Shown here in pieces: positions 2,561 to 50,330 of a stretch of DNA of 54,950 nucleotides (the first letter of the stretch is position 1; each line of letters opens with the position of its first letter). Below the pieces are notes generated by a model. It did not search any database. It saw only the letters and a program-made list of their open reading frames with translations, and was not told where the DNA came from. This stretch comes from a virus (Duplodnaviria > Caudoviricetes). The DNA lies in the IMG/VR virus record IMGVR_UViG_3300043424_000638, positions 1 to 54,950 of that record, one strand, 5' to 3'. Made by a program: the position numbers and the translations under genes.

Positions 2561-3715
2561 TCAACGAAAACCCATTCTTTTTTCTTCCAAAAGTTCAGGA
2601 GAAACAATGGTTGAATTTTCGTCTGTATTGTAAAGATCTGCCAAAGAAATATCATCTTTAACTTGATATTTGATATTATCTTCATCGGCGATTTTTTGAG
2701 CTTTAGATGCTTTTAATTTTCCAAAATTATATTCTACTTTCAAACGACCTTTACGAAGAAGAGCCTTATCAATAGATTGACGAGGAGAATTGTAGGTGGC
2801 AATAACTGCAATGTTAAAAACATCCGCCATCATACCATCTGTGATATTAAGAATAGCAGAAACCAAAGAAGAAGAGTCTGAAGGATCACGAGCTAACAAG
2901 GCTTTTTCCGCATCTTCAATAATCAAAACACTGTGCTTCTTATGAAGAAGAGCTGGAAGGAAAGAAGGGTCTGCTAAATGTTCTACAAAACTAGTAGGAA
3001 TATAAATCATATCTCTCTTGACCAATGAAGAAAGATATTTGATGTATGTTGTTTTACCTGTACCTGGATCTCCATGAAAAAGATAAAGACCTGATTCATT
3101 TTTATTCAATGAATCCACGATGACGTTATGAATTTTCGGGAAATCATCGTTATAACATTTTTCAATATTGTATAATTCTGGAATACGAACTTCAAAAGGC
3201 TCAAACCTTATAGAACCGTGTTCATCTCTCATTACTGTAAAAATAATATTTTTAATGTCTTCAACAATAAAGAAAGGTTTCAAATCTTCTAAAGGAGGTT
3301 TCACACAACCAGGATAGAGAATTGTAATTTTGTAATTACAACCTTCTTTTTTAACTTTTTTAGATTGAGTTTTTTCTAACTCAATTAAACAATCTTTATA
3401 AAAGAAAAGTTTATGTTGATGTGCTTCTGAATCATCCCAAAAATCACTAGTACCATGTACCCCGCTAGAGGAAGCATTTTGGGAAGGAATGGTGTTTCTT
3501 TCTGTGACTAATTCTGCATTCTTTTCTAGGAATGGTAAAATATCATTAGAAATGGGTGTTTCGAAATCTAAAACAGAAGAAGCCATTCCGTATTTTTCCA
3601 GAAAATAAACAGAGTGTGGAAAAAAATGATGACTATTACTAGGGGAAAAATATTCTACTTTTTTATTTAAAAAATGTGGTTTAGTATTAAATGAAAGAGG
3701 AATGTCCATAAACAA
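2561..3715 (-). CDS. AAA+ ATPase
   Basis: Walker A GDPGTGKT, Walker B LIIEDAE, sensor TYN, ALLRKGRL Arg finger. Confidence 0.9.
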   Translation of the reverse strand: MFMDIPLSFNTKPHFLNKKVEYFSPSNSHHFFPHSVYFLEKYGMASSVLDFETPISNDILPFLEKNAELVTERNTIPSQNASSSGVHGTSDFWDDSEAHQHKLFFYKDCLIELEKTQSKKVKKEGCNYKITILYPGCVKPPLEDLKPFFIVEDIKNIIFTVMRDEHGSIRFEPFEVRIPELYNIEKCYNDDFPKIHNVIVDSLNKNESGLYLFHGDPGTGKTTYIKYLSSLVKRDMIYIPTSFVEHLADPSFLPALLHKKHSVLIIEDAEKALLARDPSDSSSLVSAILNITDGMMADVFNIAVIATYNSPRQSIDKALLRKGRLKVEYNFGKLKASKAQKIADEDNIKYQVKDDISLADLYNTDENSTIVSPELLEEKRMGFR

Positions 3716-3745
3716 ATCCTAAATCAAAATATTAAAATAACAAGA

Positions 3746-3961
3746 TTATTTTTTAATAAATTTATTTTCTTTCATCTTTCGATGAAGTCTTTTCATTTTA
3801 CGGACTTTAATTTGTTTAGGAGTTTCAAATGCTCTTTTCTTCCTAATGGTGTCCATAATTTCTTCACTATCTACTTTAAATTTAAAACGCTTTAAAGCAT
3901 AATCGATATTTTCTTTACCGAAATAATCTCCTTTATTTAATTTTACTGAAATGTTAATCAT
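3746..3961 (-). CDS. rpsU: Ribosomal protein bS21
   Basis: 71 aa basic; ENIDYALKRFKFKV..E.IMD.IRKKRAFETP matches the bS21 pattern. Confidence 0.85.
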   Translation of the reverse strand: MINISVKLNKGDYFGKENIDYALKRFKFKVDSEEIMDTIRKKRAFETPKQIKVRKMKRLHRKMKENKFIKK

Positions 3962-6867: not shown

Positions 6868-7322
6868 TGGTGGAGGTGTCGGCTTACGATAGCCGAGTCC
6901 AATGAATTTTCATACTCTAACTCTTCACATGCTTGAGTACATTTAACATTTTAGCTACCTTACGGTAACGGAGACAATAGGTTGTCAGGTTGCACTAACC
7001 GAGTTTTATGTCTACCTATATGCGTGATTAAAGACCGCATATCACCTATGACTAATTTTACCACACTAGTCACTTCGTGCCCGAACCTCTGTCGTTCAAA
7101 GTAGATTTAGAGGATCCTCTACTAGGCTCTTAGGCTACTAGAGCGTAGTCTTCAACGCCAGCGAGGAACTCGTCAGCATTGTTGAAGATGTACTCAGCTT
7201 CAGCTAAAAGATCAGAAGTATTGTCTTCTGCGTTTAGTTTTTAATCGATTTTTAAAGAGGCCATCGATTAACCTCTGCATGCATTAAAGAATTACAACTC
7301 AATGTCGAATCCTTTCACCCCC
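6868..7322 (-). ncRNA. ssrA: tmRNA, 455 nt; tag ORF 7231-7130 = AEDNTSDLLAEAEYIFNNADEFLAGVEDYALVA*
   Basis: 5' GGGGGUGAAAGGAUUCGAC; 3' CACCUCC-A-CCA; G3.U70 Ala determinant; pk1 (AGAGG/CCUCU with UUAAUCGAU/AUCGAUUAA); UAAAC|GCA resume site; tag ends YALVA. Confidence 0.95.
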
Positions 7323-10545: not shown

Positions 10546-11556
10546 TTAATCCTTATAATTTCGATTGATCAATTTGAATCCCAACGGTCTACGTGATTCA
10601 AAAGAACGAGGGTAGCTCTTTGGTCTTACCACAATCCCTTCTGCATCAAGTCCACTAGAATATTTTTGCTTGTCTGCTAGTTCTTGAAGTTTGCCTAGAG
10701 GATTGGTATAAAGTTTTAATGTAGAAGAGACCTCATAATGACCTAAAAGAGGAACCACCCCACAAGAAAGTTTATTATCACAAAAGTCTTTCATGGTGTC
10801 ATAGTCCATATATTTTTCGTTTTCTTTAATTTGGAAAACAAAAATACGAACATCATTTAATTTCAGACGATTCTGTTGGATTCCGTTACCCACTAATTCT
10901 CCTTGTATAATTCCAGACCATTCAGAGGGAATTTGGAGTTTTCGAGCAGCTTTCCAGAATGTAGAATTTTCTGTTTCTTTTTTAGAAAGATTTCTTGAAC
11001 ACACTTTTTTCAATTCTCCATTTTCTACAACTAAAGTTATACTCGAACCGTCTAGTTTTTGAGTGATAGTGATAAAGGGTTCAATATTTAAAACTTTTTC
11101 GACAAGATCTGGATCATTTAAACCATTGTCTTCGTCCGTTTTAGAAATCAAATGACTTGGAAAATCTCCTTCATTTTCTCCAGAAAGATTTGCTGGAAGT
11201 TCTTTAATATATTTTTGAATACCCAAATCTTCCGTAAGATCCTTTCCAAGCTCGAAGTCCCGCAAGAAAAGAGGAAATTCGCCAATAGGCACAACTAGAC
11301 CAGAACTATACTCTCCACGAAGTTTTATATTTTTAAGTCGAATAGGTTTATCGGGATTTTTTTGATCCACTAAAAATTCAGACCATTGACAACGAGGAAC
11401 AATGGTATCAATAGTAATAAAAACTACTTTATCCCCTTCTTTATGAATACCTTTTTTAACTACAGTTTGCCATCCTAAAACTTCTGCGATCTCCAAAGAA
11501 TCCGCATTAGGGTGAACTCTTATATTTTTGATAACTTCTATAGATGCTAATTTCAT
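10546..11556 (-). CDS. RNA ligase, DRB0094/Rnl2-like family with N-terminal OB-type domain
   Basis: HPNADSLE..V.GWQ N-domain; motif I KLDGSS, IQGEL, FVFQI, EGIVVR, FKLIN. Confidence 0.9.
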   Translation of the reverse strand: MKLASIEVIKNIRVHPNADSLEIAEVLGWQTVVKKGIHKEGDKVVFITIDTIVPRCQWSEFLVDQKNPDKPIRLKNIKLRGEYSSGLVVPIGEFPLFLRDFELGKDLTEDLGIQKYIKELPANLSGENEGDFPSHLISKTDEDNGLNDPDLVEKVLNIEPFITITQKLDGSSITLVVENGELKKVCSRNLSKKETENSTFWKAARKLQIPSEWSGIIQGELVGNGIQQNRLKLNDVRIFVFQIKENEKYMDYDTMKDFCDNKLSCGVVPLLGHYEVSSTLKLYTNPLGKLQELADKQKYSSGLDAEGIVVRPKSYPRSFESRRPLGFKLINRNYKD

Positions 11557-15154: not shown

Positions 15155-15233
15155 TGGTACACCCGGTGCGACTTGAACGCACATTGATCCAGTTACTCGG
15201 CTACGCTTTAGAAGAGCGTTGAGATACGGGTGT
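15155..15233 (-). tRNA. Non-canonical tRNA-Arg(UCU): no D-arm at the normal position, D-loop-like sequence in the variable region
   Basis: ACACCCG/CGGGUGU-A-CCA; ACGCU-CUUCUAA-AGCGU; GUGCG-UUCAAGU-CGCAC; only UAUCUCA between acceptor and anticodon arm. Confidence 0.85.
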
Positions 15234-15974
15234 ATATAAATTGCATTGTTCTAAAGATTCTATAATAATAAGGTTGGGTAACATTTTTTTCAACACTATT
15301 AATTTATTTTTTTGTGCTTTAATAGCTGTAGGATTTTTAGGATCTAAATACAAATCAAAGTCCGGCAGATAAAAGTCTGGGAAGTAGTGGTGTTTTATTC
15401 CTTGTTCGTCGTTCCATTGTATTGGTTCTGGTCGAATCCATTTAACATTTAGTTCATCAAGTCTTTGAGCAAGGGCTAATTCCCAAGACGAATCTAAAAG
15501 TACGCCTTTGTACATTACAGTTCCCCTTTTAAGTCTTCTATGTTTTGATATTAATGCTTTTTGTCTTATAATTTCTTTTGCCTTTTTTGTATGAGTCTTC
15601 CCTAAAAATGTTTGATGATTAACGTGATTATAGCATCCTCTTTTCCAGGCTTCTTTAATTCCTTGTTTTGCTTTTTCTCTTGCCTCTGGTGTTAAAATTT
15701 GAGGTAAAAAATCTTTATTATTTAAAATACGCTTTATACGTTCTGCTGCACTTTTTTTGTAGTATTCAGTTTTTGGATTCAAATCACACCACCTTATATG
15801 ATTTGCTTTTTTTGTGGGTGTAAAATTTTCTAAAGATCTTTTGCAATAAGTGCAATTATTTAAGTGTGGTTGTGGTGGTTTGTAATCACCATTACAAACC
15901 GACGTATGTTTTTCGTAATTTTTAGCTCTTGTGGTAAACCAGAAATGACATTTTGTACATTGGAGTTTTTTCAT
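15201..15974 (-). mobile_element. Free-standing homing-endonuclease-like gene (Zn fingers, NUMOD3-like, PD-(D/E)XK TnsA-like C-domain)
   Basis: CxxC...H...C fingers, GKTHTKKAKE, SSWE, YFPDFY...LDPKN; last 11 codons lie inside the tRNA-Arg. Confidence 0.8.
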
Positions 15975-16833: not shown

Positions 16834-17592
16834 ATGAGTAAAATGAATTATTTGATGGTCAAAAAGTGTATTATTAATAACAAAAAATATCTTTGTAAAA
16901 AAACAACCGATGACATCAAAAAAGCAATTAATTATAAAGGTTCTGGTATTATAATTAAAAGGCTAAAAAATAAATACGGTAGAGATTGTATTGTGCATGA
17001 ATCGATTCTCTGTGTGATGCCAGTTGAACAAAAAAAAGAATTTAAAGATTTTTGTTTAAAAACGTCATTAAAATTTAATGTGGTTGAAAGTGATGAGTGG
17101 TTAAATCTCGAACATGAAATGGGTGGAGGCGGTTCTACAATTTTTACAAATCATAGTAAAGGCAGAAAAGCGATTTTTAAAGGTAATGATCAAAAATGGG
17201 TTAAATTAGAAGATCTTGAAAGTTACCTAACAGATGGGTGGGTGTTGGGTATAACTCAAAAAACAAGAGAAAAATTGTCAAGAGCATTAAAAGGAATGCC
17301 TGCACACAATAAAGGCAAAAAAATGAAAAAGGATCATGAATATAAAACAAAACCTTGGGTCAAGAAAACAGAAGAAGAAAAATTTATAAACAGGAGCAAC
17401 GGTAGAAAAAAACTTTATTCTGATCCCGAGTATTTGGCAAAATTTAAAGCACCCAGAAAACCATTAATTAAAATAATAAATTCAATAGGAGAAGAATTTT
17501 TAAAATCTCGGGCTGAAATAATTAAAATGGGGTTAACATTGAGATCTTTATTGAAAGGGGGAGAATCAAAAGGGTGGAAAATTGCAAGGTGA
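16834..17592 (+). mobile_element. Seg-like GIY-YIG homing endonuclease with NUMOD DNA-binding repeats
   Basis: YLMVKK...KYLCK...YKGSG...WLNL; YLTDGWVLG and TREKLSRALKG.PAHNKG motifs; opposite strand to neighbours, own GATAAATA motif; stop overlaps tRNA-Ile 3' end. Confidence 0.8.
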
Positions 17593-17673
17593 GGGAATCG
17601 AACCCCCGCTCGGCCCACATCTAGGGCACACAGGTTATAAATCTGTCGGTACTTCCAGTTATACGAACCTTGC
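17583..17673 (-). tRNA. tRNA-Ile(UAU) with 22-nt variable arm; CCA not encoded
   Basis: GCAAGGU/ACCUUGC-A73; GUAU/GUAC D-stem; ACAGA-UUUAUAA-CCUGU; V-arm GCCC/GGGC; GGGGG-UUCGAUU-CCCUC. Confidence 0.85.
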
Positions 17674-17680
17674 ATCAAAA

Positions 17681-17965
17681 TGGTCCCATCGTCCGGGGTC
17701 GAACCGGAACTCTCCTTTCGGAAAATCGGATTTTAAGTCCGCCTACCACTATAACTTTCGTTACCATTTCTGTTTGTGGTCTGGATCATACCTTTACCTT
17801 AACTTTTACGTCTTAGGTAGGTGATTATGATCTCTACACGTCTCTCATTTAAGAGATTTCGCTCGGGGTTGGGATTTTAAACCGTTCACCGAATTTACAC
17901 CATTTAGATATAGGTTTCCCTATAAATGCACCTTTTAATGCGTCTGCCTATTCCGCCACGATGGG
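17681..17965 (-). tRNA. tRNA-Leu(UAA), split by a group I intron (exons 17965-17938 and 17741-17681)
   Basis: Spliced product: CCCAUCG/CGAUGGG-A-CCA, GCG/CGC D-stem, UCGGA-CUUAAAA-UCCGA, long V-arm, UCCGG-UUCGACC-CCGGA. Confidence 0.93.
17742..17937 (-). ncRNA. Group I self-splicing intron, 196 nt, ORF-less, inserted between tRNA positions 27 and 28
   Basis: 5' exon ends in U with P1 GCAU/GUGC (U.G); terminal G; P AAAUUCGGUGAA, Q AACCCCGAGC, R GUGUAGAGAUCAUA, S AAGGUAUGAUCC; P2 UAUAGG-GAAA-CCUAUA. Confidence 0.92.
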
Positions 17966-18079
17966 TTATAAATTGTTTTTAAATCTTATTCTTTCAAAAA
18001 ATCTTTCAGAAGTATTTTTAAGAAGCTTCTGTCTTCTTTATTGGGATTAGAATAATCCTTTTTAAGAAAACATCACGTT

Positions 18080-25974: not shown

Positions 25975-26060
25975 TGGCTCCTCGTCTTGGACTTGAACCA
26001 AGAGTGCCTTTCGGCTCCCGGTTAACAGCCGGGTGTATTTACCAATTCTACTAACGAGGA
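25975..26060 (-). tRNA. tRNA-Asn(GUU) with class-II-like long variable arm
   Basis: UCCUCGU/ACGAGGA-G-CCA; CCCGG-CUGUUAA-CCGGG; V region A-GCC-GAAA-GGC-ACU; CUUGG-UUCAAGU-CCAAG. Confidence 0.92.
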
Positions 26061-44054: not shown

Positions 44055-44846
44055 ATGAAAACTCCAGCATACTATAGTGCTATATATGAAAAAATTATGT
44101 ATAGAGCTAAAAATAGAGAAAGCATAACAGGATATATCGAAAATCATCACATCATACCACGCTGTATGGGTGGTACTGATGAAAAAGAAAATATTGTACC
44201 ATTGACACCCGAAGAACATTATGTTTGTCATCAATTATTGGTTAAAATTTATCCAGACCACGTAGGTCTCTGGAGAGCAGTTTACATGATGACATACGCT
44301 ACAAATTCAACTAAAGGTAGAAAAGGAAATAAACTATACGGTTGGTTAAAAAGAAAAAACAAATGGAAAGAACGAGTATTAAATAAATGCCAATATTGCG
44401 GTAAAGAAAATTTTATTTTAAAATGTTTCAAAAGAAAATTTTGTAGTAAGTCGTGTAAAAACTCCAGCCAACAAATTAAAATAAATAAAAAATGCAAACA
44501 TTGTGAAAATGACTTTTTTGTTACTTCTTATGAATCAAAAAAACGAAAATTTTGTTCTCCTGAATGTAGCAGTTTGTCACAAAAAAGAATTGCAAAAAAG
44601 AATTGCAAAAAATGTAAAAAAGAATTTAGTGGTGAACCTAATTTAATTTCAAAAAGAACATTTTGTTCTTTAAAATGTGTCAGTGAATCTCTAAAAGGAA
44701 TTAAACGAATGGTACCAGAACGCGTAAAGATAACCTCAAAACCCTGTAAATATTGCGGTAAACCCATATATGGTAAACCAGGTAAACTTAAACAAAAAAA
44801 ACACTGCAGCACCTCTTGTGGTGCTAAAAGTCGTTGGAAAGCTTAA
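44055..44846 (+). mobile_element. Mob-like HNH homing endonuclease with tandem Zn-finger repeats
   Basis: ENHHIIPRCMGG.D...N.V.LTPEEHYVCHQLL; four CxxC...(F/H)CSxxC repeats; opposite strand, own GATAAATA motif. Confidence 0.88.
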
Positions 44847-46712: not shown

Positions 46713-47378
46713 ATGAAAAGATATTTGCAACCACTCAGGATTAATCATCCAGAAGACAATGTTTTCTTTTGGGGGTGTTTGCATTTGAATCACGGCCCTA
46801 AATGGCAAGTCCCTCTTTGGAAAATGAGAGGTTTTAATTCTGTTCAAGAACACAATGAAGCCATTGAAATCGCTTGGAGAAAGTCTTTAAATGAAGAGTC
46901 TATCATTTTTCTTTTAGGAGATACCTGTTTCGGGTATCAAGCCGAGGAGTATATGGATTCTTTCTTTCATCGAGTACCTTTTAAAGAGGTATATTGGTTA
47001 CCTGGAAACCATACAGCGGGTTGGAAACAATTTTTATGTAAATCTGATTCCGAAGGAGTAATAGATAGAGGGTATCAGAAAATTTATTTGACCCCTAATT
47101 ACTTGGAAATGTTTATCAATGGTCATTCAGTGGTGGCTTCTCATTATCCTATTGCTTCTTGGAACGGTCAAGGCAAAGGCTCTTATATGGTACATGCTCA
47201 CGTTCATGGGACTTTGGATAAATCCGAATTGGGGAAAGTTTTATATCGTTCTAGAATTAAAGAAGTGTCTGTAGAAAAATGTTCAGAACCTATTTCTTTT
47301 AATAATATTAAAAAAAGTTTTGATCAAAGTATTATCACTTATGACCATCATGGAGTGGGTACTTTAAATCCCTTTTAG
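46713..47378 (+). CDS. Calcineurin-like metallophosphoesterase (variant first motif GCLH)
   Basis: GCLH..H, LGD, PGNH, SHYP, HAHVH. Confidence 0.85.
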   Translation: MKRYLQPLRINHPEDNVFFWGCLHLNHGPKWQVPLWKMRGFNSVQEHNEAIEIAWRKSLNEESIIFLLGDTCFGYQAEEYMDSFFHRVPFKEVYWLPGNHTAGWKQFLCKSDSEGVIDRGYQKIYLTPNYLEMFINGHSVVASHYPIASWNGQGKGSYMVHAHVHGTLDKSELGKVLYRSRIKEVSVEKCSEPISFNNIKKSFDQSIITYDHHGVGTLNPF

Positions 47379-48515: not shown

Positions 48516-49202
48516 ATGAATAAGGATTTACCTGTAATTTTTCTGGGAGACCACCACGGAGCTTGGAATGAATTATTTTATTTGATTGATAAAAATAAAA
48601 TAGAAAATTGTAATATCGTTTCTGTTGGGGATTTGGGGATAGGATTTATTCATAAAGAAAAACAAAAAAGACAAACAGATTTACTCAATAATCAATTTAA
48701 AAATTTAAACATTAATTTTTTAGGTATTAGAGGTAATCATGATGATCCTTCTTATTTTGAAGAGGAAAATAGAATTCAATTGTCTAACTTCCAATTGATA
48801 GAAGATTATACTGTAATAGAATATAAAGACAAAATTATTCAATTTATTGGTGGAGCTATTTCTATTGATAGAACGGGTAGAACCGAAGGAATATCTTATT
48901 GGCCTAAAGAAAGGTTAAAATATGATAAAGATAAACTTCAAAAAGCAGACATTCTAGTTACTCACACTGCTCCTTCTTGGTGTTTTCCGCAACAATTTAA
49001 TGAAATGGTTTATGGTTGGGCTAGAGAAGATGCTTATCTGTTAGAGGATTTAACGGATGAAAGAGCAATCATGGATGAGATTTTTAAAGTGTGTAAACCT
49101 TCTTTGCATCTTTATGGTCACTTTCATTCTTCAGTTACAGAAAGAATCAATGGGTGTGTCCATAAATTGTTAGGCATAAATGAACTTTGGGAGATGACTT
49201 AA
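48516..49202 (+). CDS. Calcineurin-like metallophosphoesterase
   Basis: GDHHG, GDLG, GNHD, THTAP, GHFH. Confidence 0.9.
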   Translation: MNKDLPVIFLGDHHGAWNELFYLIDKNKIENCNIVSVGDLGIGFIHKEKQKRQTDLLNNQFKNLNINFLGIRGNHDDPSYFEEENRIQLSNFQLIEDYTVIEYKDKIIQFIGGAISIDRTGRTEGISYWPKERLKYDKDKLQKADILVTHTAPSWCFPQQFNEMVYGWAREDAYLLEDLTDERAIMDEIFKVCKPSLHLYGHFHSSVTERINGCVHKLLGINELWEMT

Positions 49203-49253
49203 TAAAATTTTTGTTCTGGCTTTTTAAAAATTATTCGAGATAATTTTTCTTTG

Positions 49254-50330
49254 ATGAAAGTATCATTAGAAAATCAAGTAGGATTCAAATCTTATCCTCA
49301 TAAGTTTTGTGGATTAGATTCTCATTTGATTATTCCAGAAATAGATGCCGAGTGGAATCAAGACAACCTACACCTTCGTTCTTTGATTGTGGATTTAGAA
49401 GGAAAGGTTTTAAGTTCCGGTTGGCCTAAATTCTTTAACTATCTCGAGAAACCCAATTGTTATCCTGATCCTTTAAATTATTCGGATTGGAGAATCAAAC
49501 AAAAATTAGACGGTTCTTTAGTCATTTGCGACTTTGTTAATGAGGAATTTAATATGAGAACTAGAGGTACTGCTTCTCATATGTTTCAAGCTAATTGGAA
49601 AGACTTTGAATTGCTTCCGAAAAAATATCCTAAAGTCGTAGAATTTTTAAAGAACAATAATTTTAGTTTATTGTTTGAAATTGTTACTCCTAATAATGTT
49701 ATTGTAATTCGACCGAAGGAAATAGAATTTTATTTTCTAGGAGTCATAAACAAAGACACATTAAAAGTTTTATCTGAAGAAGAGTCTTTAGAGGTTTGGA
49801 GAAAAATTGGACAACCTCCTACTCCTACTCAATACCAATTTGATAGTATTAAGGATTTAGTAAAACTATCCGAACATATTAAAAATTGGAAAGGAGAGGA
49901 AGGTATTGTTGTTTCTTATAACAATGGTCAAAATAGAATTAAAATGAAATCCGATTGGTATTGTTGGGTTCATGCTATTAAGTCTCAATTGAATTCAGAA
50001 AATAATTTGATAGAATACTATGTAAATTCTCATATGCCTTCTTCTGATGAATTCTTCAAAAAGATAGAGACAGAATTTGATTTTGAAATTGCTACTCAAT
50101 TAAAAGAACAAATAGAAAAAATTTCTGAGACAGGAGAAAAAGTAAAACATTCTATTCAGGTCATGAAAGATTTTATTAACGACATTAGACGTTTTGAAAC
50201 TCGTAAACAAAAAGCAGAATGTATTCTGAGATCTTTTAATGATCGTGCTTCTTTTGTTTTTTCTTTACTTGACGGAAAAGAATTAACTTCTGTACAATTA
50301 ATCAAACTCATGCAACTCCATAATACCTAA
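49254..50330 (+). CDS. RNA ligase, T4 Rnl1-like
   Basis: RSL, WPKFFN, KLDGSL, LFE, EEGIVV, KMKSDWY. Confidence 0.88.
   Translation: MKVSLENQVGFKSYPHKFCGLDSHLIIPEIDAEWNQDNLHLRSLIVDLEGKVLSSGWPKFFNYLEKPNCYPDPLNYSDWRIKQKLDGSLVICDFVNEEFNMRTRGTASHMFQANWKDFELLPKKYPKVVEFLKNNNFSLLFEIVTPNNVIVIRPKEIEFYFLGVINKDTLKVLSEEESLEVWRKIGQPPTPTQYQFDSIKDLVKLSEHIKNWKGEEGIVVSYNNGQNRIKMKSDWYCWVHAIKSQLNSENNLIEYYVNSHMPSSDEFFKKIETEFDFEIATQLKEQIEKISETGEKVKHSIQVMKDFINDIRRFETRKQKAECILRSFNDRASFVFSLLDGKELTSVQLIKLMQLHNT

Follow-up and report, generated by a model that had tools for sequence, protein, structure and literature searches.

Introduction

In the survey of Williams (2020; bioRxiv 10.1101/2020.01.27.920355), the group I introns of bacterial tRNAs fall into 21 tRNA/site types comprising 5292 genes, and all of them lie in the anticodon loop. 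The pipeline behind that survey examines only 8 anticodon-loop positions, so that stem sites are invisible to it by design; a literature search turned up no paper that places a group I intron in the stem of a tRNA, and a case in the supplements of the survey is unlikely given its method. Here we describe a tRNA-Leu(UAA) gene in which a group I intron of 196 nucleotides (nt) very probably occupies such a stem site, between U27 and C28 of the anticodon stem. The gene belongs to the IMG/VR virus record IMGVR_UViG_3300043424_000638, an uncultured freshwater phage estimated to be ~25% complete, whose 54,950 bases were analysed as a whole and are called the window throughout. The guanine-cytosine content of the window is 29-40%, and its genes include phage tail-fibre, virion, RNA-ligase and homing-endonuclease genes. 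An original prediction, made for this DNA from its letters, had likewise placed the catalogued bacterial tRNA group I introns in the anticodon loop, in agreement with the survey.

The closest well-described system is the classic Leu.3Ug intron. Both it and the window intron interrupt tRNA-Leu(UAA), share a core that is homologous over its full length, lack an open reading frame (ORF), carry a U.G pair at the splice site and a terminal G, close P2 and P9 with GAAA loops, and terminate in the motif ...GAAAGYUAUAGURGUANG. They differ in where they sit and in what they pair with. Leu.3Ug lies in the loop, between U34 and A35, and its guide GAGU pairs with ACUU, whereas the window intron lies at U27/C28 in the anticodon stem, and its guide GUGC pairs with a D-stem strand together with nucleotides 26 and 27. 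The 3-bp P10 of the classic loop-sited introns (UUU/AAA) has no counterpart in the window intron, and the anticodon hairpin, which in the classic gene is built from both exons, is contained here within one. Nearer still by phylogeny are tRNA-Leu(UAA) introns at position 33/34 (L099, L029, L035 and L018), which are sited 6 nt downstream of 27/28 (CU/UAAAA, the slash marking the site) and have the guide GGUC.

Other comparisons are more distant. The introns of tRNA-fMet, tRNA-Arg(CCU) and tRNA-Ile(CAU), assigned to subgroup IC3 by the intron database that Williams (2020; bioRxiv 10.1101/2020.01.27.920355) cites, belong to the same family as the window intron, but all are in the anticodon loop. 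The group I introns of the tRNA-like domain of transfer-messenger RNA (tmRNA), known from 343 genes in the same survey (bioRxiv 10.1101/2020.01.27.920355), also reside in a tRNA-like fold outside the anticodon loop; they occupy the T loop, however, and thus a loop rather than a helix, in tmRNA rather than tRNA. For phages, a passage of the review by Hausner et al. (2014) places all introns then known in protein-coding genes. A further comparison is with Archaea, where bulge-helix-bulge tRNA introns at non-canonical positions are reviewed in PMC4090602. Unlike the window intron, the archaeal introns are cut out by a protein endonuclease and a ligase, with no ribozyme, no P1 and no terminal G. 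Archaeal tRNA introns occur at many positions, stems included.

Layout of the split tRNA-Leu(UAA) gene

The gene lies on the minus strand at 17965..17681 and is interrupted by a 196-nt group I intron (17937..17742), coordinates and strand that the original prediction had right. Exon 1 (17938..17965, 28 nt) supplies the acceptor 5' strand CCCAUCG, U8 and G9, the D arm, A26 and U27, and terminates in ...GACGCAU; its final four nucleotides, GCAU (17941-17938), are the 5' strand of P1. The intron (17742..17937) begins with UAAAAGGUGC, ends with GUGGUAGG, holds no ORF and has helices P1-P9, as identified with the Rfam model RF00028, with a family covariance model (R1, below) and by covariation. Exon 2 (17681..17741, 61 nt) starts with CGGACUUAAAAUCCGA and contains C28-A31 (CGGA), the complete anticodon loop CUUAAAA and the 3' stem strand UCCGA, followed by a long variable arm, the T arm, the acceptor 3' strand CGAUGGG, A73 and an encoded CCA. 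The lengths of 28, 196 and 61 nt and the end letters were checked by script. Three metatranscriptome runs and one DNA run, all in the form of contigs, were compared with positions 17560-18060; a 6527-nt contig from the independent DNA run spans this whole region with 3 differences, and the split locus is therefore no assembly artefact.

The intron belongs to the bacterial tRNA group I family

The whole Rfam Intron_gpI model (RF00028) matches 17761-17949 of the minus strand with 35.2 bits (expectation value E 2.6e-7 in a 601-nt search and 5.6e-9 over the whole record). The covariance model R1 was built from a seed of 25 tRNA-Leu introns that are all loop-sited (33/34 or 34/35), with no 27/28 intron among them. 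It matches 17742-17940(-) over model positions 1-200 of 200 with 156.4 bits (E 1.1e-36); further 27/28 introns score 157.8 bits (L136), 155.0 bits (L141), and 113.7 and 112.6 bits (L140 and L143), while the 34/35 intron of Agrobacterium phage Atu_ph07, a positive control outside the seed, reaches 169.5 bits. Rfam was blank on three candidate relatives, L002-L004, at E up to 0.1, which is a filter effect; L002 and L003 are clear family members by R1. Searched with blastn, phage records yielded homologous cores from Atu_ph07 and from an uncultured phage of 735 kb, both of which have the tRNA-Leu(UAA) intron at the classic site U34/A35 and 3' ends that match that of the window intron base for base. 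Judged by sequence and predicted structure, the window intron is a member of the known bacterial tRNA-type group I family; the subgroup label IC3 is taken from Williams (2020).

A structural alignment (A1) of 30 compact introns, consisting of the window intron, L136, 3 introns at 33/34 and 25 at 34/35, argues in the same direction. RNAalifold recovered P2, P3, P4, P5, P6, P8 and a three-way P9, and P7 was added as a pseudoknot (columns 147-151 with 200-204), giving 45 pairs in 10 helices in which 97.0% of 1345 cells are standard pairs; when the partners were slid by 1-3 columns as a control, the paired cells fell to 27.8-42.2%. Both-sided changes occur in 28 of the 45 pairs, a covariation score reached by 0 of 500 shuffles. 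In P2, which in the window is the hairpin UAUAGG-GAAA-CCUAUA (17909..17924), all 7 helix pairs show double changes and compensatory variants. P7 pairs the 5' strand GAUCA (17828..17832) with the 3' strand UGAUC (17784..17788), as placed from the covariation alignment. By analogy with established group I structure, the G of the P7 5' strand would be the conserved partner in the guanosine-binding G-C pair, and this pair is present in 30 of 30 rows; further along P7 the window intron has two compensated swaps.

Predicted splice sites, P1 and the in-silico spliced product

All 30 family members in the alignment end in the same invariant G, which in the window intron is 17742, and the R1 match stops exactly there, so that the 3' splice site, directly after this terminal (omega) G, is fixed by homology. 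Exon 2 therefore starts at C28 and contains the whole anticodon loop, and from this it follows that the 5' exon must end at position 27. The end of exon 1 in turn offers a suitable P1: GCAU pairs with the internal guide sequence GUGC (intron nt 7-10, 17928..17931), with G7 and U27 forming the U.G wobble at the splice site. The minimum free energy fold of the whole precursor (-79.2 kcal/mol, z -2.7) contains P1, and it also forms the acceptor stem, the anticodon hairpin and, within the intron, P2, P6, P8 and P9. Once the exons are joined in silico, ARAGORN calls an 89-nt tRNA-Leu(taa) with every stem paired; this product is a canonical class II tRNA-Leu(UAA) with A73. A brute-force test of junctions with ARAGORN proved too permissive for 5' sites and was used only to pick tRNA-Leu(taa) cases with U at -1. 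When guides are compared by site, introns at 34/35 use GAGU with ACUU, those at 33/34 GGUC with GACU, and those at 27/28 GUGC with GCAU; on the sequences at hand, the guide covaries with the insertion site across the family.

Splicing would then be expected to proceed as follows. GUGC would pair with G24-C25-A26-U27 to form P1 with the U27.G wobble, in keeping with the group I paradigm, and for this two pairs of the D stem would have to be open in the precursor. Free guanosine would attack after U27, the terminal G would dock at the conserved G-C pair of P7, and ligation of the exons would create the U27-A43 pair that completes the 5-bp anticodon stem. P10 would comprise at most one pair, between C28 and the G located 5' of the guide. 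A preformed 4-bp anticodon hairpin, right after the 3' splice site, would be the obvious structural neighbour of that site.

Conservation of the 27/28 site

The site was found in 7 contigs: the window, L141, L136, L140, L143, L154 and L155. Their introns measure 196 nt (2 contigs), 199 nt (1), 283 nt (2) and 375 nt (2). Exon 1 ends in ...GGCAGACGCAU in all seven, exon 2 starts with CGGACUU or CAGACUU, and in-silico splicing yields tRNA-Leu(taa) by ARAGORN in 7 of 7. The tRNA bodies vary in a compensated manner: acceptor strands CCCAUCG, CGGGCAG, CGGACAG and CCCCUUG each come with matching 3' strands, and the anticodon stem is CGGA/UCCG or CAGA/UCUG. Inside the clade P2 likewise has compensatory variants (UAUAGC/GCUAUA, UACAGU/ACUGUA and UAUAGA/UCUAUA). 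Together with the homology of the core and the covariation described above, these contigs uphold the central claim of the original prediction, namely a complete ORF-less group I intron after U27 with a U.G pair in P1 and the anticodon loop in exon 2.

The contigs were recovered with junction patterns. A 3'-junction pattern retrieved 17 stretches from IMG/VR (1 true, L136, and 16 false), none from species-representative bacterial genomes, and 4 from the metagenomes of the Joint Genome Institute, where L140, L141 and L143 are true and L142 is false. A 5'-junction pattern retrieved 5 stretches from IMG/VR, adding L154 and L155 as true cases, finding the L136 contig again, and including two false ones, L152 and L153. 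Intronless alleles of the kind that the original prediction would look for among relatives did not appear: an exact-match scan of IMG/VR with a 26-nt stretch of the window exon 2 gave 0 matches, and one with a 28-nt stretch of the L136 exon 2 gave only its own contig.

A scan for the 19-nt 3'-terminal intron motif shared by the family turned up at least 118 stretches in IMG/VR and at least 120 in bacterial genomes. Of the 120 viral and 121 bacterial motif matches listed, none opens exon 2 with an anticodon hairpin; 18 rows flagged by the hairpin screen turned out on inspection to be chance pairings in variable or T arms or to stand in non-tRNA contexts. The commonest exon-2 starts among the matches listed are AAAAT (73 viral, 38 bacterial) and CATAA (5 viral, 30 bacterial), and AAGCC/AAGCG is also present among the 121 bacterial ones; we take CATAA and AAGCC/AAGCG to be the exon-2 starts of fMet and Arg genes. 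The motif matches lie mostly in tRNA genes of many anticodons, including a CUA type (exon 2 start CTAAG), and a few family members stand in non-tRNA contexts, e.g. L074, L159, L165, L181, L190, L196, L224 and L236.

Relation to the 33/34 introns

A maximum-likelihood tree of the core from P4 to the 3' end (80 rows, 156 kept columns, unrooted) was computed, leaving out 33 matches without the P4 anchor motif and cores outside 100-240 nt, except L140, L143, L154 and L018. It joins six 27/28 rows and the 33/34 intron of L018 in one clade (ultrafast bootstrap 99, Shimodaira-Hasegawa-like approximate likelihood ratio 92), which in turn is nested with the 33/34 introns L029 and L099 (97/92). Monophyly of the 27/28 introns is not rejected (approximately unbiased test, p-AU 0.50), and the constraint costs no likelihood. 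An earlier quick tree that split the 27/28 rows was replaced by this one, which includes the full L018 core and L154 (same core, 156 columns). In the host genes, exon 1 of L018 reads ...UGGCGAAAUGGCAGACGCA-G-CAGACU up to its intron, while exon 1 of L136 ends in ...UGGCGAAAUGGCAGACGCA-U and is followed, after the intron, by CAGACU. The 5' tRNA halves are thus near-identical, sharing a D arm that forms a 19-nt stretch (counted by eye), with CAGACU on opposite sides of the intron.

The original prediction had proposed an independent insertion, a reading that calls for correction: the window intron and the classic tRNA-Leu intron are members of one family, and the introns closest to it are 33/34 introns whose tRNA bodies are near-identical. 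An unrelated or distant group I intron that entered 27/28 de novo, with no move from a loop site, is unlikely. A guide that differs from those of the loop-sited relatives would fit such an event, as would the failure of the exact-match exon-2 scans of IMG/VR to turn up an intermediate or intronless allele; yet the 27/28 introns are full-length homologues of the tRNA-Leu loop introns by R1, they group with the 33/34 introns at the support values given above, and the 5' tRNA halves of L018 and L136 are almost the same. Because the 27/28 introns cluster with the 33/34 tRNA-Leu introns, the better reading would be a local shift of 6 nt, in which a 33/34 tRNA-Leu intron relocated within one tRNA lineage and its guide was retargeted.

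Such a relocation could have come about by reverse splicing, by an endonuclease-driven ectopic event or by recombination. A passage of Hausner et al. (2014) describes transposition by reverse splicing as lacking direct experimental evidence. We tentatively suggest, as a possibility less likely to be true than not, that a 33/34 intron reverse-spliced after U27, was copied to DNA and fixed a new guide, and that P1 now holds the 3' strand of the D stem and so gates folding of the tRNA. If this were true, sequestration of that strand by P1 would mean that the tRNA cannot fold before splicing.

A rearranged locus was also observed among these relatives. In L149 (G001:C1:37600-40200), on the minus strand at ~1575-845, a tRNA-Leu exon 1 is followed by a large 33/34-type intron with inserts in P5, P6, P8 and P9; beyond its terminal G come 8 nt, then a complete tRNA-Leu(UAA) that has another acceptor stem and no intron, and finally a terminator-like hairpin. 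L018/L149 lacks a cognate exon 2 and resembles either a product of recombination or an intron left orphaned.

RNA contigs across the locus

Two metatranscriptome contigs match the locus with 0 differences, one of run X18 over 17779-18012 and one of run X19 over 17781-17954. None of the contigs of the three metatranscriptome runs shows a joint across the intron, and exon 2 and the 3' end of the intron are without RNA cover. Both matching contigs stop shortly before the P9 segment that is conserved across the family, and we read these stops as an assembly branch point and not as an RNA end. Spliced tRNAs of 89 nt are not expected in such contigs, and the RNA contigs are therefore neutral on splicing. 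At its other side the X18 contig ends at 18012, 47 nt upstream of the tRNA-Leu 5' end, which could be the end of a transcript or of a fragment; the letters at this contig end are presumably sequencing adapter. No sigma-70-like promoter was found on the tRNA-Leu strand near 18012.

Is the gene functional?

Several observations weigh against a functional gene spliced after U27, or limit what can be said of it. Both perfect-match RNA contigs cross the exon 1-intron junction unspliced, where DNA carry-over in those libraries is possible. The Rfam score of 35.2 bits falls short of the gathering score of 50, as do those of known loop-sited relatives from G002 and G003 (38.6-45 bits). P1 is invariant within the 27/28 clade, and covariation thus provides no test of P1 inside that clade. 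The intron, too, starts with U, and a G stands immediately 5' of the guide (GGUGC), so that a tandem U.G is possible and the cut could fall one nucleotide later; only the tRNA cloverleaf would choose U27 over that cut. P10 is nearly absent, with at most 1 bp compared to the 3-bp UUU/AAA of loop-sited introns. P1 competes with the D stem, and splicing could therefore be inefficient or protein-dependent. Finally, the tree is unrooted and does not set the direction or mechanism of the 6-nt shift.

One could conclude from these points that the gene is dead or decaying, that an intron landed or was rearranged in the stem, that the precursor gives no usable tRNA and that the locus is a relic. The rearranged relatives in L018/L149, which have exon 1 and a 33/34 intron without a cognate exon 2, would fit this, as would the lack of spliced RNA in the metatranscriptome contigs, the need for P1 to open the D stem and the minimal P10. 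The site nonetheless persists across 7 contigs and 4 intron variants, compensatory changes have accumulated both in tRNA stems and in intron helices, a full cloverleaf results in 7 of 7 in-silico products, and by R1 the catalytic core scores as high as the loop-sited positive control; we thus consider a relic very unlikely. Hardly credible is splicing at another junction, or with extra processing, to a mature RNA that differs from the 89-nt tRNA: the tandem U.G, in which U27 and intron U1 lie opposite the GG of GGUGC, the tRNA-Arg(gcg) with a 189-nt intron that the ARAGORN intron option proposes on the unspliced gene, and several further in-silico junctions accepted by ARAGORN all allow for it, but a 5-bp anticodon stem with U27-A43 and standard spacing results from no junction other than that at U27, the 3' end is set by homology to the invariant terminal G, the wobble G is 13 nt from the P2 GAAA loop as in the 34/35 relative L003 (counted by eye), and the Arg(gcg) split cuts after a G and disregards P1.

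Taken together, it is highly probable that this is a functional split tRNA-Leu(UAA) gene with a 196-nt, ORF-less, tRNA-family group I intron between U27 and C28. As far as sequence comparison can tell, the 27/28 intron is real and conserved, and very probably functional; it belongs to the known tRNA-Leu family but occupies a type of site that is new for it.

The neighbouring ORF at 16834-17592

A free-standing ORF lies on the plus strand at 16834..17592; its start is uncertain (16819, 16834, 16843 or 16855), and it overlaps at its end with the tRNA(UAU) gene of the opposite strand. The original prediction had called it a GIY-YIG gene, a label that the predicted fold may support but for which no sequence-level family match was found. 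The ORF has 8 cluster-level relatives and no Pfam annotation; Pfam was searched to E 10 with no GIY-YIG match, and there was neither a PHROG match nor a PDB sequence match, while a NUMOD3 motif is weak (E 0.039). An AlphaFold2 model (mean predicted local distance difference test score 78.9) is most similar, out of 48,161 chains, to the I-TevI catalytic domain 1ln0_A, with Z 7.2, where Z <8 can reflect a common arrangement (root-mean-square deviation 2.9, 80 of 92 residues aligned, 25% identity); the next match has Z 4.9, with other GIY-YIG enzymes further down the list. Over its last 45 residues the model is similar to a C-terminal portion of I-HmuI (Z 4.7), in keeping with a DNA-binding-like domain. 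Foldseek with the whole model returned no match at E <= 0.001.

In phage T4, SegB is reported to be a GIY-YIG homing endonuclease in the tRNA gene cluster (cited in PMC3984707; PMC13096335). The ORF resembles SegB in being free-standing, in lying in a tRNA cluster and in a predicted fold that may be GIY-YIG-like, and differs from it in lacking the sequence-level family match. On the strength of the model, it is plausibly a Seg-like homing endonuclease. No match to it was found in the records of three relatives, G001-G003, one of which has the 27/28 intron, and in L141, a near-identical tRNA-intron copy, the downstream neighbour is a tRNA(CAU) (assigned by eye) compared to the tRNA(UAU) of the window. 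Collaborative homing of the intron by this ORF is a conjecture.

Two other ORFs of the window are likely mobile nucleases: a Cys-rich ORF at 15201-15974 (-), which matches PHROG endonuclease families (phrog_15137, E 8.4e-12), and a homing endonuclease at 44055-44846 (+) (phrog_655, E 3.6e-43). A second group I intron was seen in the 27/28 phage G002, ~1 kb upstream (L150, G002:C1:72000-79000, 2924-3190; Rfam 45 bits, R1 112). It lies in a tRNA with the anticodon CAU, apparently after U36, and adjoins a 230-aa Cys-rich endonuclease-like ORF at 3197-3889 (-), which has no significant likeness to the window ORF at 15201-15974 (E 0.078).

tRNA and RNA-repair genes in the surroundings

The split gene is followed, 6 nt downstream of its CCA, by a 93-nt tRNA(UAU) with a long variable arm (17582..17674, minus strand; ARAGORN; Rfam tRNA model 38.2 bits), with which it is likely co-transcribed. 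In the tRNA(UAU) of the window the anticodon-stem pair 31-39 is A.C. Class II-like tRNA(UAU) genes of 91-94 nt also occur at L022:471-561, L055:667-760 (-) and L091:380-473, each, like that of the window, beside an intron-split tRNA; G002 carries an ordinary 75-nt tRNA(UAU) instead of the long-arm form. The window further contains, at 25975-26060 (-), an 86-nt tRNA-Asn(GUU) with a long variable arm, G73 and an encoded CCA, although this anticodon normally belongs to class I. In other phage loci (L017:570-656, L046, L028 and L117), long-arm forms of Thr(UGU) (87 nt), Met(CAU) (84 nt) and Phe(GAA) (86 nt) were observed, whose anticodons are likewise those of class I tRNAs as a rule.

At 6868-7322 (-) the window has a tmRNA that matches the full Rfam model RF00023 with 103.5 bits; with 455 nt compared to 374 model positions it has large insertions, and it was not called by ARAGORN. 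Two RNA ligases (phrog_968 and phrog_562) and two phosphoesterases are encoded at 10546-11556 (-), 49251-50330 (+), 46713-47378 (+) and 48516-49202 (+), a combination reminiscent of the RNA/tRNA repair set of T4, close to the tRNA genes.

Implications

The unspliced split tRNA-Leu gene is not called by default ARAGORN or by the Rfam tRNA model, and the ARAGORN intron option miscalls it as tRNA-Arg(gcg). Standard tRNA finders miss the gene because the intron is in the anticodon stem and not in the loop; phage tRNA repertoires are under-called where these tools overlook such a split tRNA-Leu. The intron family itself is common in phages, with at least 118 IMG/VR stretches, most of them in tRNA genes, contrary to the statement in the passage of the 2014 review by Hausner et al. 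mentioned above.

For the ribozyme, the conserved stem site suggests that nucleotides of the D stem and of positions 26 and 27 can serve as its P1 substrate. Zaug and colleagues reportedly found in 1993 that pairing between the exons in the anticodon stem is required for the Anabaena intron; conservation of the stem site suggests that the ribozyme may be able to dispense with such pairing. With sister introns 6 nt apart in near-identical tRNAs and with different guides, these genes offer a compact system for studying relocation by reverse splicing. If the tentative reading of transposition at the RNA level is true, stem-sited group I introns would be a hidden class, unseen by the current tRNA and intron pipelines.

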